DNA of 64,000 bases, taken from the sequence record OR544956; one strand, 5' to 3'. Positions 38,204 through 55,515 of the stretch are shown piece after piece; the first letter of the stretch is position 1; every line of letters begins with the position of its first letter. The translations under genes and the position numbers were made by a program. Source of the DNA: Escherichia phage vB_EcoM_EP57. Under the pieces are notes generated by a model. That model did not search any database, was not told the origin of the DNA, and saw only the letters and a list, made by a program, of their open reading frames with translations.

Positions 38204-40048
38204 TTAACCACCAGTGTTAGATTGTCCACTTAGAGTTGAAAGAGATAAACGTTGGAAAATGCTATTTCCGCTATTTTGAATTCTTGCATCAAGAATATTT
38301 CCAAACTCTGAAGAAGGGCTGATCGTAACTTTGATAAGATCACTTGGTATTGCTACCGTATTCTCAACAACAGGTTGATTACGAGCCAAACTTACATTAG
38401 GTGTATATGCCGACTGACGTAAATCTTCCAGAGGATTACCAAATCCAAAAGCACGTGTCCTTGTTTGTTCTCCTCTCCACATACGACCAATATCTTGTGT
38501 ATCAATACCTGTTAAATTGTACAACCAATCTGCTACAGGATTGCTGTCTCCACTTTGCGTTGCCTCGTATGCTTTTTGTGCTAAAGATTTATTAGGATCT
38601 GTGTCTTTAACGTTATCCAACCAAGAATCATCTTTAGGTAAGGCTTTCACAAAACCCTCTAAGAAGTGGTTCTGCATACCTTGACCTACAAGCTGAACTG
38701 TTGCAGCAAAACGAGTAAACTCTTTAGAAGCATCTATTTGTTCTTGAGTTAATGTTGCACCTGTTCTTTGAAGCATTTTCAATACTTCATTATACCCTTC
38801 GCCGTTTTTACTAAACATACGTTGGTAGTGCATAAGGTCATCACCAAGGTTTTCAAGAAGTCGCCCGATTTGAGCAGAGTTCATACCTCGACGCTCACCT
38901 TCATTAACAGTAGCCTGAATAAAAGCTAAAGGATCGTTCTGTAAAGGTTTAAGCTGTTCTGGATTCCATCCAAACAAGTTCATAATGTCATTTATGCCAT
39001 TATCACCGCCTTTCCACTTCCCTTCTTTCTCATTCCATTTTGAGGCTAAAACTGTATTACCAAGACGTTCACGAACGTCTTTAATATTATCTATTGACTT
39101 AATAATATTTGCAGAGTCTACACCGTTCTGTTCACCCCAAGCTGTCATCGCTAAAATAGAGTTGGCGTTTGTCTGAACGTTTTCAGCGCCACGACTTACA
39201 AGTTTAATTCTTTCGTTAGTATTCATCAACGTGTTACCAACTACAGAACCACCTGCAAACAGCCCAGCACCTATTAAAGAGGATGCAATCATGCGTGGAT
39301 TAAGACCTGCTGCACCTTCTTTTAATTGTCCATATCGACGATCACGATCACGTTTTTGTTGAGCTAATTCACGCTTACGGTTGCGTTCTATATCTCTAAG
39401 TTCACGATTTCGCATACGTATACGCATTTTAGCTTCTGCTTCTAGCTCTCTACGAATACGGCGACGACCGCGAACCTCGTCTTCTATTTCAGCATTCTTT
39501 TCACGATGAGATCTGCGTAAGGCATCTAACTGGTGAGCAAGAGCTTGGTTCATACGTTGAAGAGTTATTTCACCCTTTTTGTATTGCTCTACAGCTTTAC
39601 CCATAACGTCCCTAGCTTCTTGCATAGCCCCAGGACTGGCTTTACTAAATGCTCTTGCTCTGTAGTTAAAGTTCTGCAAACGAAGATTACCTAAATCTTC
39701 CCTACGTGCTGCTGCTTTAGCTTCGCGTTCAGCAGCTTTACGAGCTTTTTCTTCTTCTCTTCCTTGCGGGGTTTTAGGAGTTCTAGGTCTACCAGATCCG
39801 CCTACAGGAGCACCCGCTCCAGCGGGAGTAGGTGCTCGCATAGGTTTTTGACTTTGAGTTTGAGCTTTCTTAAGTTCACGCTCAATCTCTTTCATTTGTT
39901 GTCTAAACTTGGTCATGTTCATAGTGGGTTGCATTTTATTTGCAAACTTCTGAACACTCAACACGGCATCTTTTGCTTCCTTGAGACTGTTCTTGTCCAC
40001 CTTAAACGTAACCACGTTACTAATTTTGGAGGCGTTAATTTCTAACAA
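38204..40048 (-). CDS. Tail tape measure protein
   Basis: 614 aa, highly charged coiled-coil (RRELEAEAKMRIRMRNRELRDIERNRKRELAQQKRDRDRR), located after the tube and chaperone genes. Confidence 0.7.
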   Translation of the reverse strand: MLEINASKISNVVTFKVDKNSLKEAKDAVLSVQKFANKMQPTMNMTKFRQQMKEIERELKKAQTQSQKPMRAPTPAGAGAPVGGSGRPRTPKTPQGREEEKARKAAEREAKAAARREDLGNLRLQNFNYRARAFSKASPGAMQEARDVMGKAVEQYKKGEITLQRMNQALAHQLDALRRSHREKNAEIEDEVRGRRRIRRELEAEAKMRIRMRNRELRDIERNRKRELAQQKRDRDRRYGQLKEGAAGLNPRMIASSLIGAGLFAGGSVVGNTLMNTNERIKLVSRGAENVQTNANSILAMTAWGEQNGVDSANIIKSIDNIKDVRERLGNTVLASKWNEKEGKWKGGDNGINDIMNLFGWNPEQLKPLQNDPLAFIQATVNEGERRGMNSAQIGRLLENLGDDLMHYQRMFSKNGEGYNEVLKMLQRTGATLTQEQIDASKEFTRFAATVQLVGQGMQNHFLEGFVKALPKDDSWLDNVKDTDPNKSLAQKAYEATQSGDSNPVADWLYNLTGIDTQDIGRMWRGEQTRTRAFGFGNPLEDLRQSAYTPNVSLARNQPVVENTVAIPSDLIKVTISPSSEFGNILDARIQNSGNSIFQRLSLSTLSGQSNTGG

Positions 40049-40068: not shown

Positions 40069-40404
40069 TTAAACAAGTTTCTTAAACAAATCTGACATTT
40101 TATTTGTCTGGTTTTGATGTTTTCTCTTTATTGAAGTGTCTTTAACATACATGGCTTCAACATACTCTTCGTATGTTAAATACTCATATAGTTTTAAAAG
40201 ATAATCTACACCGTAGTTATCCAATGTTTTCAGTGTTTCCGAGGTATCTTTAACGACTTTGCAAAGAATAACCTCATACCACTTCAAAGTAAGGGTTTTC
40301 GTTGCTGTGTCGATAGCATGTTCAATCGCAGGTGTTAATTTGCTGCTAAACTCGTCATCGCCTGAAGCTGTGTGAACAGTTTTCCGAAACCTCGTTTGAA
40401 AAAA
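40069..40404 (-). CDS. Tail assembly chaperone frameshift extension (GT-like product made by -1 frameshifting from 40335..40817)
   Basis: The -1 frame is open from 40428 to the stop at 40069; slippery site on minus-strand codons occupies plus 40398-40404. Confidence 0.5.
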   Translation of the reverse strand, partial: FFQTRFRKTVHTASGDDEFSSKLTPAIEHAIDTATKTLTLKWYEVILCKVVKDTSETLKTLDNYGVDYLLKLYEYLTYEEYVEAMYVKDTSIKRKHQNQTNKMSDLFKKLV

Positions 40405-40817
40405 GGGCCGTAGTTTACCTCCAGAACTTTAGCAGTAAGATCTAACACTAGTTCTGGGTGAGCCATAAATAATTCATCAAAATTTTCTGCAACGTTATAA
40501 CCGTCTTGAGTATAAACCTCATCTAAAATTTTACGCAAAAATACAGTTAAATTCTTTTCTTCCAAACCTGCAAAAAGTTGGATCAGTGCCATAGCAATAC
40601 GTGACTCAAGGTCTTCGTCTGCGGACATTGTTGCTGTGCTATACATAGTCATAGGAACAACCAGAACACTACCCAATTCTGGAATCCTGTCAAACACTTT
40701 AGATGGACTCCACTTCATAATACGGAAAGTAACAGATCTGTTTCCATCTAACGGAATCTCAACTACTTCTTCTGGTCGAGCATATTTTTGAATCGTGTTA
40801 TCTTGTTCTTGTGACAT
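40335..40817 (-). CDS. Tail assembly chaperone (G-like short product)
   Basis: Sits between tube and tape measure; carries the slippery heptamer T_TTT_TTC 21 codons before its stop. Confidence 0.55.
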   Translation of the reverse strand: MSQEQDNTIQKYARPEEVVEIPLDGNRSVTFRIMKWSPSKVFDRIPELGSVLVVPMTMYSTATMSADEDLESRIAMALIQLFAGLEEKNLTVFLRKILDEVYTQDGYNVAENFDELFMAHPELVLDLTAKVLEVNYGPFFKRGFGKLFTQLQAMTSLAAN

Positions 40818-40862
40818 ATTTTCCTCTCTAATGATAAAAAGGGCATTTCTGCCCTTTATTTA

Positions 40863-41111
40863 TTATTGAATTGTCAGAGCAGAGATTGAGTTAAGGGTGC
40901 TCAAACCTACACCAACTTCATTACGCAGAAGACTTGCATCTTTAAGACCAATAACCCATTGGTTCTCTGTAATCATTTCGCCAATAGTATCTTCAGGCTG
41001 ACTTTGAATCCATCCAATCGTGCTAATGTAATAGCCACGTGGGTCTTCCAAGTAAACACTGAACGCTACTTGACGAGTAGAATACATTGTTTGTGCATAT
41101 GTTGCAAGCAA
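40863..41111 (-). CDS. Tail tube protein, C-terminal segment (frame -1 relative to 41066..41314)
   Basis: Frame is open upstream to a TAA at about 41135; together with 41066..41314 gives about 150 aa. Confidence 0.45.
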   Translation of the reverse strand: MLATYAQTMYSTRQVAFSVYLEDPRGYYISTIGWIQSQPEDTIGEMITENQWVIGLKDASLLRNEVGVGLSTLNSISALTIQ

Positions 41112-41314
41112 GACATTGTGAGTGTTCCCAAACGGTTACGACTCAAAGCTAGTGAAACGTCGCCATCAGTCCCTGAATAAGGGTTGATAATATCGTTAGA
41201 TTTAGCAATAACGATTTTAGTATCAGCCGCAAAACCCCACGGTTCCCAACCACCTAATGAAAGGATAACTTGAGATGGGTCGTAGGCCATTACGCCAGTA
41301 AGCATTTTATCCAT
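41066..41314 (-). CDS. Tail tube protein, N-terminal segment
   Basis: Immediately downstream of the sheath gene. Confidence 0.45.
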   Translation of the reverse strand: MDKMLTGVMAYDPSQVILSLGGWEPWGFAADTKIVIAKSNDIINPYSGTDGDVSLALSRNRLGTLTMSCLQHMHKQCILLVK

Positions 41315-41338
41315 TATAGATCCTCTTTATTTTGATAA

Positions 41339-41355
41339 CGGGGGCTTAACCCCCG
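41339..41355 (-). other. Sheath-tube intergenic hairpin (CGGGGG-UUAAG-CCCCCG)
   Basis: Stable stem-loop between sheath stop and tube ribosome-binding site. Confidence 0.35.
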
Positions 41356-41360
41356 CCGTA

Positions 41361-42734
41361 TTAGTTTGCAGTACGGTTAGTCAGGACGTTGACCTGAACT
41401 TTAACGTAATGGAAGAAGCCAGCGTAAACATATTCAATCTTCATCCCATCGACCAGACGAGCATTGATTTGCGCATCAGTCATATCGGCACGAGAAGGAA
41501 TATAAACAATAGGTTTCAGATCGACACGCAAACCAGTCTCTTCAGAAGTAACAACTTCATTAGCGATGGAACCGTTGAGGATACCTACTTGGATTGGGTT
41601 AGCCAGAACAGCTTGTCGAATCAAAGCCAGACCGTTTGAAGTAGCACGAACACCACCACCCAGCATAGACTGTTGTTTAAACAGTGTAAACAGTGATTCT
41701 TCTGTGCGAGCTTTAAACCACAAAGCATGAACAACATAGTCAACAAAGAAACCGCTAACCATCAATCCATCACGATAGAACAGAGTTCCATGCTCTTTAC
41801 GATAGATGTTACCGTTCTGTTGAACAATATTGTTTTCCGAAGTCTGATCCAGTTTCTCGATCTCTACACCTACCAGTGTTTTACCGTGAAGAGTAGTTAA
41901 ACCAGGTTGACGAGAACAGATTGCACCAACAACTGCTGCTTCTGGGAATACAGAATCTGCATCGGTCATCCACAAAGCAAAGCAAGTGTTATTATAACCG
42001 AGGTCATTCAGTCGTTCCAGAACGTTATCTTCTGCTTTCGTTTTAATTCCAGGTTCAGAACTAGAGAAGAAGTAAACTTTATCATTCTCTTCTACCCATG
42101 CAGCCAAAGCTAGAACATCTTCTGTTTCATGGGAATCTGAAAGGGTCCAGAACCAGCTACTATCAATATCATGCAGAGCAGCGATATCTTCCGTAATAGC
42201 ATTAGCATAGACAGTTTCTTGAGTGAAACCTGTGCTGTCAATAGAACCAAACTTACCTTCTACTGGAGTGAAAGTCATTGCAGCGCCGTTGTTAGCTACT
42301 GTAAACAGTGGGCCATAAACAAGATCTGCATTGATCATTTCAGTCAGACCAACTACAATCTCTTGTGCAGTTGCAGTGTCATCAGCAATGAATTTAAATT
42401 CTTTTTTCTTGGTACCATTTTTGATGGTAATTGTGTAAGTTGCACTATCTTCTACGATTGGAGTTAGAGTAAAGTTTGTAACTTCACGCTTACCAACCAT
42501 GACTTGATCTGGTGGGAACAAACCGTTAAACAGTTTGACTGCCATAATATACGCTGGATCATTTAATCCATAACCTGCTTCCAAAAGTGCATCGGAAGAA
42601 GAGTAATATTGAATCGCTTCGCCAGTTACGTTCTGACCTGTAAGGATCAGGGGAATATCGAACTGGGTTTCACGAATTGATGTAGCACCATACAGTAAAG
42701 TTACGGTTGCTACCTTTTCACGAAAAGTTGCCAT
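41361..42734 (-). CDS. Tail sheath protein
   Basis: 457 aa, directly upstream of tube, chaperone and tape measure. Confidence 0.65.
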   Translation of the reverse strand: MATFREKVATVTLLYGATSIRETQFDIPLILTGQNVTGEAIQYYSSSDALLEAGYGLNDPAYIMAVKLFNGLFPPDQVMVGKREVTNFTLTPIVEDSATYTITIKNGTKKKEFKFIADDTATAQEIVVGLTEMINADLVYGPLFTVANNGAAMTFTPVEGKFGSIDSTGFTQETVYANAITEDIAALHDIDSSWFWTLSDSHETEDVLALAAWVEENDKVYFFSSSEPGIKTKAEDNVLERLNDLGYNNTCFALWMTDADSVFPEAAVVGAICSRQPGLTTLHGKTLVGVEIEKLDQTSENNIVQQNGNIYRKEHGTLFYRDGLMVSGFFVDYVVHALWFKARTEESLFTLFKQQSMLGGGVRATSNGLALIRQAVLANPIQVGILNGSIANEVVTSEETGLRVDLKPIVYIPSRADMTDAQINARLVDGMKIEYVYAGFFHYVKVQVNVLTNRTAN

Positions 42735-42768: not shown

Positions 42769-43407
42769 TTATTCGGTAGGGTTGTTAAATAATGATCCAT
42801 TTTGATTGACTGACGAGTATTCGCCTGGAACCAAAGTAATTGCATAAACCCTGTTTAGAATTAAATCTAAAGGGATAGGATCATTGTAACTATCTCTGAA
42901 TGAACGGATGTGCATGTTGATTGCTTCTATTGGTGTAGTAGCAATATCTTCAATACTCATACGAGTGTTGAACGTCATAACCATACGCGCTCTTAATTCA
43001 GTCTTATCTCCGTCTACAATTGTATTGGCTTGAGCTATATTGGAGGCTCCTAAAAAACCAAGACCTTTAGAATAGAGATGTTTGTATTTTAATTCCTCTG
43101 CACCACGGAGAGCAGCCAGAACATAGCTCATCAAAGTGGTAGGTCTTCCACGATAGGCTACAAGTTCAATCTCGTAGGTATTATCCATCTCGTAGGAATA
43201 CATATCATTTTGAATAGAGCTTCGGTAAGACCAACCTCCAGAATCGCTGGAAGTGATAATATGTAGTGCTAGGTAAGGAGTATCCGGTTTAATGAATGGC
43301 TTATCCATAACATAGACTGGCAACCCCACTAATTCTTGAAGGAAGCCACCTATATTTAAGTAGATGGCATTTTCGTATGCTTCTATTTGTTGGTAAATAT
43401 TAGCCAC
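42769..43407 (-). CDS. Virion structural protein (tail completion or neck, hypothetical)
   Basis: Position between head and tail modules. Confidence 0.3.
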   Translation of the reverse strand: MANIYQQIEAYENAIYLNIGGFLQELVGLPVYVMDKPFIKPDTPYLALHIITSSDSGGWSYRSSIQNDMYSYEMDNTYEIELVAYRGRPTTLMSYVLAALRGAEELKYKHLYSKGLGFLGASNIAQANTIVDGDKTELRARMVMTFNTRMSIEDIATTPIEAINMHIRSFRDSYNDPIPLDLILNRVYAITLVPGEYSSVNQNGSLFNNPTE

Positions 43408-49981: not shown

Positions 49982-52057
49982 TTATCTTTTACGGACACTA
50001 TACGGTTGGTGAAATCCGCTGTTCATTCTACTGTATCCTGTAGGAGCATTTGTTGTTGTAGGGATAGCTACTGCTTTGAAAGTATTCTCTTTTGACAGAG
50101 TATTAAAACAAGAGGCAGCAGCATCGGGAATGTCATCTTTAATAGTGGCTGTAGATCTTTCACCATTGAAAGATTCCAATTCTTTATAAAAGTGGGTTAA
50201 AGTCTCCACATTAGGGAAAGAATCTTCAACAATATAAACAAAACCGTTTTGACACGCACTACTAAAAGGCATGAAACGCTGAAGCTTTTTCTTGTTACCT
50301 GGCATAGCATCTGGTTTAACAACAAAACCCTCTAGAATAAGTTTCTTTGCAGACTCTGTGTATTCTATTGTCCCAGCACCAGATGGGTCTTTAGGAAGCA
50401 CTACTGTAACTTCTGGTCCATCAATCTTACATTGATTTAGAATCAGGTTATCCCTTTCCCCAGGTAGTCTTCGAAACCTTCCGAAAATTTTACTTTTCTC
50501 ATCCACAGCATCATAATCATAGTCGCCAAAGATGTAGATATTACCATCTTGGTCTTTACCCATTTTGACAGATGTTGTATAGTCTGGATAACGGTAAGTT
50601 TCTGTAGGAACTGAAACAGCTTTATCCCATGCTCGCATTAGTTTAAGATTGTTAGGAACATCTTTATAAGATATTTTATGTAACCATTCACGTTGAAAGA
50701 AAGATTCTTTCTGGATACGTGCAAACCAACAACCGTCCAGAAGCTGTGCTCTTTTGATCGCTGTTTGTGATTTAAGCTGTGCTAAGTAATTAGGGTTAAG
50801 CCTAATGAGTTCTGGGTTATCAAATATTGTCCCACCAATAAATACGAAAGTTTGTGGTTCAATAACAACTGTCTCCCCTGTATTAGGGTTTTCCATGAAA
50901 CAGTTTTCTGGATATTTTTCTTTCAGTTCTTCAGGTGTGTCAGCAAAAACAGGTTCATCGTTAACAATGATGAAATATTTTTGTTTACCACACATATCTT
51001 CTCTAGGATAACCACCCTCATCAAGATAAGGTAACACCCAATTCAAAACCCAACTATCTGCGTCAGGGTTACATGTGCACAACATGAAACTTGTTTCTGA
51101 CTCTGAACGCATACGTCCCAGAAGATAGAGCATTTCATATTGTGTGAAGTGGGTTAACTCGTCAAAACCTACCATTGAATACTGTGTACCCTGATGGTTT
51201 GTTTCTGCTGTTACGTTATCATTTTCCAAATGGTCAAATTTGAGGGTTCCGCCACCAGTGGCTTCAAAAATGATATCCATTGTACTTTCTTTTACGTGTG
51301 GTTGTAAAGGAAGATACAAACGTTTTGCTTCTGTAAACAGACCACCTGGTTTACGGTGAGCAGTGGTGTTCTTACGGAAAAGTATTCCACCAAACAAAGG
51401 GTCTTTGTAGGCGTATTTTAAAGCTTTCAGCAATAGCAGACGAGACTTGCCGCTATTCCCAGTAACGAAGCAGTGATCGCCACGTCTAAAGACAATATAG
51501 CTGCTTGGAGTCTCAAAACAATATTTCTTATCATCTGTTGAAATAACCTCGTGTATTTTTAAGTAAGTGCTCTTTTTACCAGGTATGTTAAAAGGAACAC
51601 GTTTACCGAATGGATTTTCTACATAACCTTGCAGGGGTTTTCCTATTTGCTGTAATGCAATAAGATCTCCTACAAGAATCTCGAAATGTTTCTTTGATTT
51701 CTTTTTCTTATAGAATACAAAACGGTGTTCCATACTAAGTTCTTGGAATAATCCTACACCATTTGTTATTCTGTATAGGTTATCTCCATTTAAATCGTAT
51801 TCTACAAAATAAGGTGTTACCAATTCTAAACGCTTATTCTTAGGATTGTATTGGTAAATATCCTCTCCCGAATATTCACTAATCTGCCTCCAACCATCTT
51901 TTGTAAGATATTCCGTTTCAGCAGAAACACATCCAGCGGCACCACCATAAATCATAACCTCTGGCATTAAATCCATTGCAAGAGTCTGTTTACCTGGTTG
52001 AGCCTTTACTTCAATATCTACTCCAGCTAAACTACCTGCTGCCTTTTTCTTTGCCAC
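49982..52057 (-). CDS. Terminase large subunit, intein-containing
   Basis: Walker A split as GGAAG / SGKS by an insertion; C-terminal nuclease region; 691 aa including a 159-aa intein. Confidence 0.8.
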   Translation of the reverse strand: MAKKKAAGSLAGVDIEVKAQPGKQTLAMDLMPEVMIYGGAAGCVSAETEYLTKDGWRQISEYSGEDIYQYNPKNKRLELVTPYFVEYDLNGDNLYRITNGVGLFQELSMEHRFVFYKKKKSKKHFEILVGDLIALQQIGKPLQGYVENPFGKRVPFNIPGKKSTYLKIHEVISTDDKKYCFETPSSYIVFRRGDHCFVTGNSGKSRLLLLKALKYAYKDPLFGGILFRKNTTAHRKPGGLFTEAKRLYLPLQPHVKESTMDIIFEATGGGTLKFDHLENDNVTAETNHQGTQYSMVGFDELTHFTQYEMLYLLGRMRSESETSFMLCTCNPDADSWVLNWVLPYLDEGGYPREDMCGKQKYFIIVNDEPVFADTPEELKEKYPENCFMENPNTGETVVIEPQTFVFIGGTIFDNPELIRLNPNYLAQLKSQTAIKRAQLLDGCWFARIQKESFFQREWLHKISYKDVPNNLKLMRAWDKAVSVPTETYRYPDYTTSVKMGKDQDGNIYIFGDYDYDAVDEKSKIFGRFRRLPGERDNLILNQCKIDGPEVTVVLPKDPSGAGTIEYTESAKKLILEGFVVKPDAMPGNKKKLQRFMPFSSACQNGFVYIVEDSFPNVETLTHFYKELESFNGERSTATIKDDIPDAAASCFNTLSKENTFKAVAIPTTTNAPTGYSRMNSGFHQPYSVRKR
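51455..51931 (-). other. Mini-intein (Hint domain without homing endonuclease) inserted in the terminase P-loop
   Basis: Begins with Cys (CVSAETEYL) right after GGAAG and ends ...DHCFVTGN followed by SGKS; removing it restores a GGAAGSGKS-type P-loop. Confidence 0.6.
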
Positions 52058-53553: not shown

Positions 53554-53632
53554 TGGAGGCGGGAATTGGATTTGAACCAATGATCTCCAGCATATGAAAC
53601 TGGCGAGGACGACCAGACTCCTCTATCCCGCT
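53554..53632 (-). tRNA. tRNA with anticodon CAT (Met or Ile2)
   Basis: Manual fold: T-arm ATTGG-TTCAAAT-CCAAT, anticodon loop TTCATAT, CCA encoded; 1-72 is an A-C mismatch. Confidence 0.55.
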
Positions 53633-53638
53633 ATTATG

Positions 53639-53708
53639 TATCCCGTGCTGGATTCGAACCAGCATCACAATAAGCTGTGGAACTCTTATCCTGTAAGTCT
53701 AACGGGAA
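53639..53708 (-). tRNA. tRNA-like element, unassigned (anticodon arm cannot be folded; possibly degenerate)
   Basis: Good T-arm GCTGG-TTCGAAT-CCAGC and acceptor pairing, but only about 70 nt. Confidence 0.3.
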
Positions 53709-53710
53709 AC

Positions 53711-53784
53711 TGGTTGTTTCGACAAGAATCGAACTTGTGTCTCACGATTATCAGTCGTGGGTTCTACCATTGAACTACGAAACA
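53711..53784 (-). tRNA. tRNA-Ile (anticodon GAT)
   Basis: Perfect acceptor, T-arm and anticodon stem; loop CTGATAA; CCA encoded. Confidence 0.7.
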
Positions 53785-53790
53785 TTAAAT

Positions 53791-53867
53791 TGGTCGGAAT
53801 TGCAGGATTCGAACCTGCGACCCTACGCTCCCAAAGCGTATGCTCTACCAAACTGAGCTAAATTCCG
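53791..53867 (-). tRNA. tRNA-Pro (anticodon TGG)
   Basis: Perfect cloverleaf; anticodon loop TTTGGGA; CCA encoded. Confidence 0.7.
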
Positions 53868-53960
53868 TCATAACATTCTAAAGGTACACCGCAAAAGAAA
53901 GTGTTCGGCGGCTCCTCGTTTTTAACTTCACACTTGAGGTAGTGACTCACCTTTGTTATA

Positions 53961-54036
53961 TGGCTGGTCTGTCTGGATTTGAACCAAACCTACGACAGTC
54001 AAAGTGTCGTGTGCTACCGGACTACACTACAAACCA
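53961..54036 (-). tRNA. tRNA-Gln (anticodon TTG)
   Basis: Cloverleaf with anticodon loop CTTTGAC; CCA encoded. Confidence 0.65.
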
Positions 54037-54134
54037 ATAAATCATTTAATGAAGGGCAACCAGAAGAGGTGTGAGAGAAGGAGAAAACCATGAGTAAAAG
54101 AGAAAGTTTTCTGGCAACCCTTTATTAAATAATT

Positions 54135-54208
54135 TGGAGCGTTCTACGAGGATCGAACTCGTGCCGCCGACTTGGAAGGACGGAATGCTACCGCTACACC
54201 AAGAACGC
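54135..54208 (-). tRNA. tRNA-Gly (anticodon TCC)
   Basis: Acceptor GCGTTCT/AGAACGC, anticodon loop CTTCCAA; one mismatch in the anticodon stem. Confidence 0.55.
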
Positions 54209-54219
54209 CCTACATCTTT

Positions 54220-54249
54220 ACTATACTACATTTTACTATTGGTTGTCAA
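54220..54249 (-). promoter_or_regulatory. tRNA-operon promoter 1 (CTATTGACAA-18-TATAGT)
   Basis: Minus strand; -10 ends about 11 nt before the tRNA-Gly 5' end. Confidence 0.55.
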
Positions 54250-54524
54250 TAGTTTTATTGAGTGGGACAGTGACGAGTATCCCGTTGGGTGACTAGCCCT
54301 ACGTTCGGTAAGCTAACTTAAAATAATACAAAACCAAAGTCAAATATTATTCTTCGTTGCTGTCGATGGGAGAGCCGCTTCTCATTTTGCCCCATCCAAC
54401 CCTACTCCGGTCAAGTTTCGGGTAACTCTTTTTGTGTGATCAACACAATACTAAGAACACTGTCTTTCGAACAGACCTTGTGCACAGGATACGACGATCA
54501 ATCACAGTGCTCTTAATGTTGTGT

Positions 54525-54599
54525 TGGTGCTCCCACACTGAATCGAACAGAGATCCACGGATTACAAAACCGTTGTAATAGCCATTATACTATAGGAGC
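54525..54599 (-). tRNA. tRNA-Thr (anticodon TGT)
   Basis: Anticodon loop TTTGTAA; minor stem mismatches. Confidence 0.5.
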
Positions 54600-54605
54600 A
54601 AAGCT

Positions 54606-54682
54606 GGGACTCGGCAGGATTCGATACCTGCAATTCCAGAAGCCTCTTGGCGACTGGGGGTTTACCTTAACTCTACAAGTCC
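54606..54682 (-). tRNA. tRNA-like element, unassigned (T-arm near-identical to tRNA-Pro but with an 8-nt loop; no foldable anticodon arm)
   Basis: gcaggattcgatacctgc versus gcaggattcgaacctgc in tRNA-Pro. Confidence 0.3.
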
Positions 54683-54689
54683 ATAATTC

Positions 54690-54775
54690 TGGCGATGAGT
54701 ATAGGATTTGAACCTATATCGTTCTTTCGAACACGGATTAACAGTCCGCCGCTTAAACCATTCAGCCAACTCATC
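54690..54775 (-). tRNA. Class II (long variable arm) tRNA with anticodon GTT
   Basis: Perfect acceptor GATGAGT/ACTCATC, T-arm ATAGG-TTCAAAT-CCTAT, extra arm GTTC-GAAA-GAAC, anticodon loop CTGTTAA. Confidence 0.45.
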
Positions 54776-54781
54776 TTAATT

Positions 54782-54869
54782 TGGTGGTGAGTGATGGAGT
54801 TGAACCACCCGAATCGCAATGATAACAGATTTACAGTCTGCCCCGCTACCCCTACGGAATTAACTCACC
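54782..54869 (-). tRNA. tRNA-Tyr (anticodon GTA), class II
   Basis: Anticodon arm CAGA-CTGTAAA-TCTG as in E. coli tRNA-Tyr; 88 nt. Confidence 0.6.
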
Positions 54870-54947
54870 TAAATACTAATATTTAAATTCTTTTTAAAAT
54901 AGCCAGTGTTCACACCACTAACTATGTAAGCCATATTAAAAAGAACT

Positions 54948-55033
54948 TGGCGGTAGATGTAGGACTCGAACCTACACGCCGTTTCCGACTACAGTTTAGC
55001 AAACTGTCGTGGCTACCATTTCACCAATCTACC
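54948..55033 (-). tRNA. tRNA-Ser (anticodon GCT), class II
   Basis: Anticodon arm ACAGT-TTGCTAA-ACTGT; long variable arm. Confidence 0.65.
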
Positions 55034-55038
55034 TAATC

Positions 55039-55129
55039 TGGCGGAAGGAGGGAGAGTCGAACTCCCAAGGCTCTTTCAAGCTCGGCGGTTTTCAAGACCG
55101 TTTTCGTCGCCACGTCGATTTGCCCTTCC
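55039..55129 (-). tRNA. tRNA-Ser (anticodon TGA), class II
   Basis: Anticodon loop CTTGAAA; long variable arm; 91 nt. Confidence 0.55.
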
Positions 55130-55137
55130 ATACTTAT

Positions 55138-55167
55138 AATCTAACATAAAATAATGTTTGTTGTCAA
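55138..55167 (-). promoter_or_regulatory. tRNA-operon promoter 2 (CTATTGACAA-18-TAGATT)
   Basis: Minus strand; -10 ends about 9 nt before the tRNA-Ser(TGA) 5' end. Confidence 0.5.
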
Positions 55168-55363
55168 TAGTTTTTTAAAACATTTTACCATGAATGGTGA
55201 CTCCACCAACCCCCGTTCTCCACGAACGGTGCTCTTCGAGCATTTATGTCTTCTAATATAACCGTGGCCTTTGTTTATAATGTCTGACATACTTGCCTCA
55301 TTCTCTGCCACCATGATCAGTAGTGGGTTCAAATTACTTGAGCTAATTCATGTTAAAATGTTC

Positions 55364-55438
55364 TGGTGTCTTTACAAGGAATCGAACCTTGACTAAGAGT
55401 TTAGAAGACTCCTGTGCTATCCATTACACCATAAAGAC
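55364..55438 (-). tRNA. tRNA-Arg (anticodon TCT)
   Basis: Anticodon loop CTTCTAA; acceptor GTCTTTA/TAAAGAC. Confidence 0.6.
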
Positions 55439-55440
55439 GT

Positions 55441-55515
55441 TGGTGGCCCTGGCTGGTTTCGATCCAGCTACCTATCGGTTATGAGCCGACAGCTCTCCCA
55501 TTGAGCTACAGGGCC
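55441..55515 (-). tRNA. tRNA with anticodon CAT (Met or Ile2), second copy
   Basis: Acceptor GGCCCTG/CAGGGCC, D-stem GCTC/GAGC, anticodon loop CTCATAA. Confidence 0.6.

Follow-up and report, generated by a model that had tools for sequence, protein, structure and literature searches.

The tail tube gene of Escherichia phage vB_EcoM_EP57 (sequence record OR544956) raises the question of why an essential gene should be spread over two reading frames. In the window, which designates the whole stretch of 64,000 nucleotides that was analysed, the gene appears as two overlapping ORFs at 41066..41314 and 40863..41111. An earlier note on this DNA had reported the pair, and its coordinates are exact. 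Such an arrangement can reflect a recoding event, a decaying gene or a faulty sequence, and these explanations were weighed by comparing the locus with its relatives and then by extending the comparison to most of the window.

By megablast, the window belongs to Phapecoctavirus, the phAPEC8-like E. coli myoviruses, and its nearest relatives are the phages tuntematon and nieznany with about 99% identity. Five records labelled as 'Campylobacter phage' (e.g. MG065650, B15) are also about 98.5% identical to the window and their host label looks doubtful. The tail module lies on the minus strand and comprises the sheath, tube and chaperone genes, a 72-codon ORF and the tape measure gene. The order sheath, tube, chaperone, tape measure is the same in Phi92/phAPEC8-type relatives. 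From upstream to downstream, the features of the locus are the following.

41361..42734, minus strand: tail sheath gene, 457 aa, intact, directly upstream of the tube gene and annotated as tail sheath in relatives.
41321..41328, minus strand: Shine-Dalgarno-like AAAGAGGA upstream of the tube start codon, read from the sequence and a good Shine-Dalgarno for ORF1.
41066..41314, minus strand: ORF1, N-terminal part of the tube, ATG start, 82 aa.
41126..41132, minus strand: T_TTG_GGA heptamer in X_XXY_YYZ phase with ORF1, ordinary Leu-Gly coding sequence.
41109..41110, no strand assigned: deletion junction at which the minus-strand 28 nt TTGCAACGCACATCTCCAGCTAACGAAG are missing, with a placement ambiguous by 1 nt.
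40863..41111, minus strand: ORF2, C-terminal part of the tube, TTG start, 82 aa.
40838..40857, minus strand: terminator-like hairpin and T-run just past the tube stop codon; a putative terminator is annotated in phAPEC8.
40335..40817, minus strand: tail assembly chaperone gene, 160 aa, directly downstream of the tube gene (Pfam Phage_TAC_15, E 1e-23).
40069..40287, minus strand: 72-codon ORF between the chaperone and tape measure genes.
38204..40048, minus strand: tape measure gene, 614 aa here and 662 aa in relatives.

The Pfam domain E217_gp31_N is recorded for a protein identical to the window's sheath. The stop codon of the sheath gene and the start codon of the tube gene are 46 nt apart, and this spacer contains a G+C-rich inverted repeat, GGCGGGGGTTAAGCCCCCGTT, at 41333-41352 on the minus strand. 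This repeat may act as an attenuator or as an RNA-stability hairpin; it has no T-run, which is the reason why the terminator scan did not report it.

The split gene had previously been taken for the tail tube, and both protein families and solved structures agree with this assignment. Against PHROG 280 (143 positions), ORF1 matches positions 3-67 (E 9e-16) and ORF2 positions 74-139 (E 6e-9), while the intact 159-aa homologue reaches an E value of 3e-35. The same homologue matches the solved chain Phi92_gp131 (21vm_A) with an E value of 2e-95 and the 'Tail tube protein' chains 9cuy_J and 9cb9_B with an E value of 6e-30. The window's ORFs are thus collinear with the Stephanstirmvirinae tail tube (Phi92 gp131, PDB 21vm; phAPEC8 gp107 / YP_007348527; PHROG 280), a family for which the Pfam KPP10_Orf10 match is weak. 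The position between the sheath and the tail assembly chaperone genes is also that of a tube gene. In tuntematon, nieznany and phAPEC8, this position is occupied by a single 480-nt CDS encoding 159 aa, which is annotated as 'virion structural protein' or 'putative tail tube protein'. One uninterrupted ORF of about 159 aa characterizes the family, and it was found in 29 of the 29 relatives fetched (11 close relatives and 18 from IMG/VR) but not in the window.

Alignment with nieznany and phAPEC8 revealed one gap of 28 nt in the window's tube gene with near-identical flanks, and outside this gap the nieznany gene matches the window's ORFs base for base. The missing TTGCAACGCACATCTCCAGCTAACGAAG corresponds to codons L69-E77 and 1 nt of V78, and its loss moves the rest of the gene to the -1 frame. 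The split is thus no product of chance and results from 28 nt that the window lacks and all relatives have. Up to the deletion, ORF1 does not differ from the tube gene of the relatives; residues 1-68 of its product are wild-type, and 14 out-of-frame residues (CLQHMHKQCILLVK) and a stop codon follow. ORF2, which overlaps ORF1 by 46 nt, encodes wild-type residues 79-159 after its TTG. Unlike the Phi92/phAPEC8 tube, the window lacks residues 69-77 and one base, and no single frame encodes the full-length protein. The sequence error suspected in the earlier note is therefore correct as far as a lesion is concerned and has to be refined in its nature, since 28 nt including nine conserved residues are lost rather than one nucleotide. 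As these residues are absent, no frameshift could restore the wild-type tube.

A first way to reconcile the split with an essential function would be that the two ORFs are translated separately and that their products then co-assemble into a functional tube. Both fragments indeed keep a recognisable homology to the tube family. Nevertheless, no Shine-Dalgarno sequence was found upstream of the TTG of ORF2 (sequence inspected: AACCGTTTGGGAACACTCACAATGTC), which leaves this start codon without a ribosome-binding site, nine near-invariant residues are absent from both pieces, ORF1 ends in residues that are out of frame, and the gene is split in none of the relatives examined. A two-piece tube is hardly conceivable.

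The 28-nt segment is present in 11 of the 11 close relatives fetched and in all 18 IMG/VR relatives, in which the tube (77-99% aa identity) is encoded in one frame. In the same way, each of the eight contigs that encode an identical sheath protein has a 159-aa tube gene with the 28 nt. Among the phage records listed, 30 of 30 have 2529-2532 nt spanned by a 2501-nt query, and when the 141-nt junction region was used, 15 of the 15 hits listed break into two pieces that span 169 nt. On the contrary, the window's junction was observed in none of six public collections: a scan for a 32-nt junction string gave no match in IMG/VR, GTDB genomes and JGI metagenomes, a BLAST search with the 141-nt region retrieved no intact junction from phages, E. 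coli genomes and plasmids, and an exact-sequence lookup of the ORF1 product in the gene catalogue was negative.

At the protein level, the deleted peptide LQRTS[P/E/D]ANE is near-invariant in the 18 IMG/VR relatives and the codons beneath it vary synonymously. The segment also aligns gap-free to a solved tube protein with about 40% identity. An insertion in the relatives instead of a deletion in the window was considered and rejected, because the 28 nt encode near-invariant residues and align without gap to solved tubes. The gapped state of the tube gene is derived and not ancestral. Repeat-mediated slippage was also rejected as the origin of the gap, since the flanking 7-nt TTGCAAC repeats predict a loss of 31 nt and not 28. 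Microhomology at the tube junction amounts to 1 nt. Microhomology above chance, which is what replication slippage or microhomology-mediated deletion should leave, was found neither here nor genome-wide, where the mean is 0.96 nt over 28 junctions compared with 0.72 nt for random cuts.

The most attractive lead at this locus was the heptamer. A -1 shift can join ORF1 and ORF2 only within 70 nt (41135-41066), between a -1-frame TAA and the ORF1 stop codon, and T_TTG_GGA is located in phase inside this zone. It had been described as lying at the junction and formally slippery-shaped; it does exist with that shape, but it is found 15 nt upstream of the ORF overlap and not inside it. In-phase XXXYYYZ sequences represent 0.39% of the codons in the window's long ORFs, so that 0.09 are expected per 23-codon zone and the occurrence of one here is no surprise. 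T_TTG_GGA is present in 10 of the 11 close relatives, whose tube gene is intact, and it is therefore older than the deletion. Further out it is lost by synonymous drift, distant relatives carrying TTTAGGT, TCTTGGT, TATGGGT, GTTGGGT or TCTCGGC instead of TTTGGGA.

No stimulatory element, either a downstream hairpin or an upstream Shine-Dalgarno-like sequence, was detected around the heptamer. In a pseudoknot-free model, the folding energy of the downstream 86 nt is -14.6 kcal/mol compared with a shuffle mean of -14.7 (z = 0.05), and no Shine-Dalgarno-like stimulator was seen in the 26 nt upstream. The product of a shift at the heptamer would be a 150-aa protein with the junction peptide NRLGNTHNVLLATYAQ, in which 15 conserved residues, TLTMSLQRTSPANEV, are swapped for 6 unrelated ones, NTHNVL. 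Each virion requires tube subunits by the hundred; the lambda virion, for example, contains about 192 major tail subunits (PMC5009743). In an E. coli reporter survey of all 64 heptamers, frameshifting without a stimulator reaches at most about 10 times a background of 0.055%, and the efficient motifs listed there do not include U_UU.G_GG.A (PMC4066793).

It could still be argued that a programmed or compensatory -1 shift at T_TTG_GGA (41132-41126) joins the ORFs into a tube of about 150 aa, given that the heptamer has the X_XXY_YYZ form, in phase, in the only zone that allows fusion, and that low-level compensatory frameshifting over 'savior' indels is known (PMC5009743). With a site that drifts synonymously among relatives, a two-ORF architecture that was seen in none of those examined, a downstream RNA no more stable than its shuffled versions and a fusion that lacks conserved residues, this explanation is scarcely credible. 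T_TTG_GGA is coincidental and not a recoding signal. The tube gene does not belong to the class of programmed -1 frameshift genes, as neither conservation of the slippery site with a two-frame architecture nor a stimulator was found.

The tail module does contain a candidate of the expected kind, one gene downstream of the tube. In the chaperone gene, two slippery heptamers stand in tandem and in phase and form the run C_CCT_TTT_TTC at 40407-40398 on the minus strand: C_CC.U_UU.U covers 40407-40401 and U_UU.U_UU.C covers 40404-40398. Between 40428 and the stop codon at 40071 the -1 frame is uninterrupted, and a shift at the run would give a 249-aa fusion absorbing the 72-aa ORF (40287-40069), which is annotated as a separate hypothetical protein in relatives. 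The sequence CCCTTTTTTC is invariant in 27 of the 27 relatives' loci that cover the site, while flanking synonymous sites vary. Both heptamers are listed in the survey as shift-prone in E. coli without stimulators (PMC4066793). The -1 frameshift signal of the module is thus predicted to be this canonical chaperone site.

Known recoding systems help to separate the two genes. The chaperone gene of the window has the same canonical arrangement as the lambda G/GT-type -1 frameshift (PMC5009743). Lambda G/GT sites combine a conserved slippery site with a conserved two-ORF architecture, and their zero-frame product is full-length and functional alone; the tube split has none of these attributes. 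Recoding inside a tail tube or shaft gene is also documented in the tsh genes of the Listeria phages PSA, A118 and A500, where a +1 shift at CCC_UGA adds a C-terminal extension (PMC5009743). Nevertheless, the Listeria shift takes place where a complete tube domain ends and gives a second product, whereas the break in the window is located in the middle of the core, removes conserved residues and is conserved in no relative. A further parallel is the G-run 'savior' indel of herpesvirus thymidine kinase, in which a gene is likewise broken by an indel near a formally slippery sequence (PMC5009743). 'Savior' indels involve 1 nt inside the slippery run and a near wild-type protein is restored (PMC5009743), while the loss in the window amounts to 28 nt and lies 15 nt past the heptamer, and a restored protein would be without the conserved segment.

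The tube deletion is not isolated. When positions 4379-61659 of the window were compared with tuntematon, 29 deletions were found, a count that is a lower bound (at least 29), with lengths from 2 to 4044 nt and a total of about 10.5 kb. No real insertion was observed in this comparison: the lone 1-nt 'insertion' is an edge effect at an HSP boundary, and refined mapping resolves it into a 281-nt deletion. The short deletions measure 2, 2, 4, 4, 6, 6, 7, 12, 17, 19, 20, 25, 28 and 38 nt, the middle ones 51, 63, 73, 91, 107, 110, 135, 144 and 152 nt, and the long ones 281, 486, 1090, 1247, 2227 and 4044 nt. Their junctions are located at the following positions of the window.

First part: 8318, 13519, 18528, 20245, 22476, 24996, 25758, 26585, 27912, 29148.
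Second part: 29549, 31908, 32394, 33614, 34401, 38604, 41109, 43406, 43529, 52056.
Third part: 54926, 56503, 56823, 57186, 57252, 57554, 57721, 58122, 59538.

According to the annotation of tuntematon, the genes that are struck include those for the primase/helicase (7 nt), a nucleotidyltransferase, several tail fibre and tailspike proteins, the baseplate wedge (110 nt), a large tail protein (25, 17 and 19 nt) and the DNA ligase (107 nt). In the tail module, the tape measure gene has a private in-frame deletion of 144 nt at 38604/38605, which leaves 614 aa compared with 662 aa in all relatives seen. If it were real, a shorter tail would be predicted from this shorter tape measure, but the lesion belongs to the same set of deletions. 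Private deletions of 152 and 2 nt at 43406 and 43529 affect the junction of two neck/head genes and disrupt both a 'hypothetical protein' (Pfam Phage_tail_terminator_9) and a 'minor head protein' (Pfam Phage_HCP). The large terminase gene has a private 6-nt deletion at 52056/52057 (CATTTC, plus strand) that, by the tuntematon annotation, eliminates the initiating ATG together with the 3 nt before it. Many of the genes broken by the deletions are essential, and as it is written, the window is not a viable or faithful phage genome.

No listed relative shares the window's deletions. The top records listed have 24,396 nt spanned by a 24,001-nt query (24,308 in one of them), 17.3-18.4 kb by a 12-kb query and 14.5-16.1 kb by a 10-kb query, each time in many pieces. 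The deletions are distributed over the three frame classes as 9/10/10 and along the reference they are placed as a uniform distribution would predict (KS p = 0.43). Their lengths are heavy-tailed, a single exponential being rejected (p = 7e-6) and a log-uniform distribution being compatible (p = 0.09), although an exponential with a mean of 48.5 nt describes the 23 deletions shorter than 200 nt (p = 0.47). A coverage-gap model was considered on this basis and was not retained, as the exponential fails over all lengths and the fit to the subset below 200 nt is suggestive, not decisive. The length distribution does not point to one specific process or pipeline.

Many deletions, no insertions and many broken genes are also what could be expected from slow pseudogenisation, in which the window would be a decaying phage remnant free of selection, for example within a host genome. 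Pseudogene decay in bacteria is biased toward deletions. Neutral decay should, however, give mostly non-synonymous changes. Selection was therefore examined in a 13-kb alignment of 10 sequences, the window and nine relatives. In this alignment, the window has four private deletions (2, 152, 28 and 144 nt) while each of the nine relatives has none. Of its 17 private substitutions, 16 are synonymous and one is non-synonymous, a pattern that is as in each of the viable relatives and not the near-neutral one of a pseudogene. This 16:1 synonymous excess indicates that the lineage was functional and under purifying selection until the present, and that the deletions were added without selection. In addition, the window is about 99% identical in nucleotides to lytic phages, a search of 5,426 complete E. 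coli genomes and a plasmid collection gave no match to the region, and the junction is absent from GTDB genomes. Slow decay has very little likelihood. The opinion that error or pseudogenisation is likelier than a programmed shift thus holds, since the lesion is private and the heptamer is coincidental, with the refinement that slow pseudogenisation does not agree with the substitutions.

The undeleted parent genome was not found in any collection searched. Among the contigs that encode an identical sheath protein, even the closest show 17-41 mismatches per aligned segment of 3.1-5.2 kb.

Since the lineage is normal and under purifying selection, recent damage to a real genome fits the substitutions as well as an artefact does. 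The deletion could thus be real and the window could represent a defective phage genome, for example of a defective-interfering-like type, that survives only by co-infection with an intact helper, from which the tube and whatever else is broken would be provided. The clean lesions and the fact that deletions are the only kind of lesion go along with this view. On the other hand, one molecule would need at least 29 independent deletions, which fall in replication, structural and packaging genes: the primase/helicase, the DNA ligase, the baseplate wedge, tail proteins, the tube and the terminase start codon are all affected. The junctions show no excess of the microhomology that replication slippage or illegitimate recombination normally leaves, neither dispensable genes nor in-frame lengths are favoured, and a second copy of the tube junction was not found in the collections searched. 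A helper-dependent defective genome is for these reasons improbable. It is very improbable that the deleted tube allele, perhaps with the whole set, is real, packaged and propagated by a helper, possibly with trace -1 slippage at T_TTG_GGA yielding a shortened tube.

Taken together, the tube split is one of at least 29 deletions that look unselected, and it is most likely an artefact of the sequence or its assembly. The artefact is favoured over recent damage because 29 independent lesions in a single molecule would otherwise be required, because the junctions are without the microhomology that is usual for biological deletion, and because positions and lengths do not avoid essential sequence. 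We infer from this pattern a technical rather than a biological cause. The lengths of the deletions count against it. Typical platform errors are homopolymer indels of 1-2 nt, unlike the deletion lengths of the window, and ordinary de Bruijn assembly does not drop segments of 2-40 nt.

In the artefact scenario, segments would have been dropped during assembly, consensus building or later sequence handling, and the written sequence would not be the state of a replicating phage but a set of unselected deletions overlaid on a functional phage genome. At the tube gene, the loss of 28 nt at 41110/41109 removes the conserved L69-E77 and puts the remainder in the -1 frame. An ORF finder then sees two overlapping 82-codon ORFs with nothing to restore the frame, of which ORF1 would give a truncated product and ORF2 is left without a ribosome-binding site.

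For those who use this record, the result is first a matter of quality control, as it removes a false lead of recoding in an essential tube gene. Other split or missing genes, the short tape measure and odd start codons in the window should in the same way be compared with relatives before they are interpreted. A private deletion of 51 nt at 54926 separates no gene from its function in the tRNA region, since it is located in the tRNA-Asn/tRNA-Ser spacer, and the ten tRNA genes at 53554-55515 on the minus strand (Met, Ile, Pro, Gln, Gly, Thr, Asn, Ser, Arg and Met) are intact.
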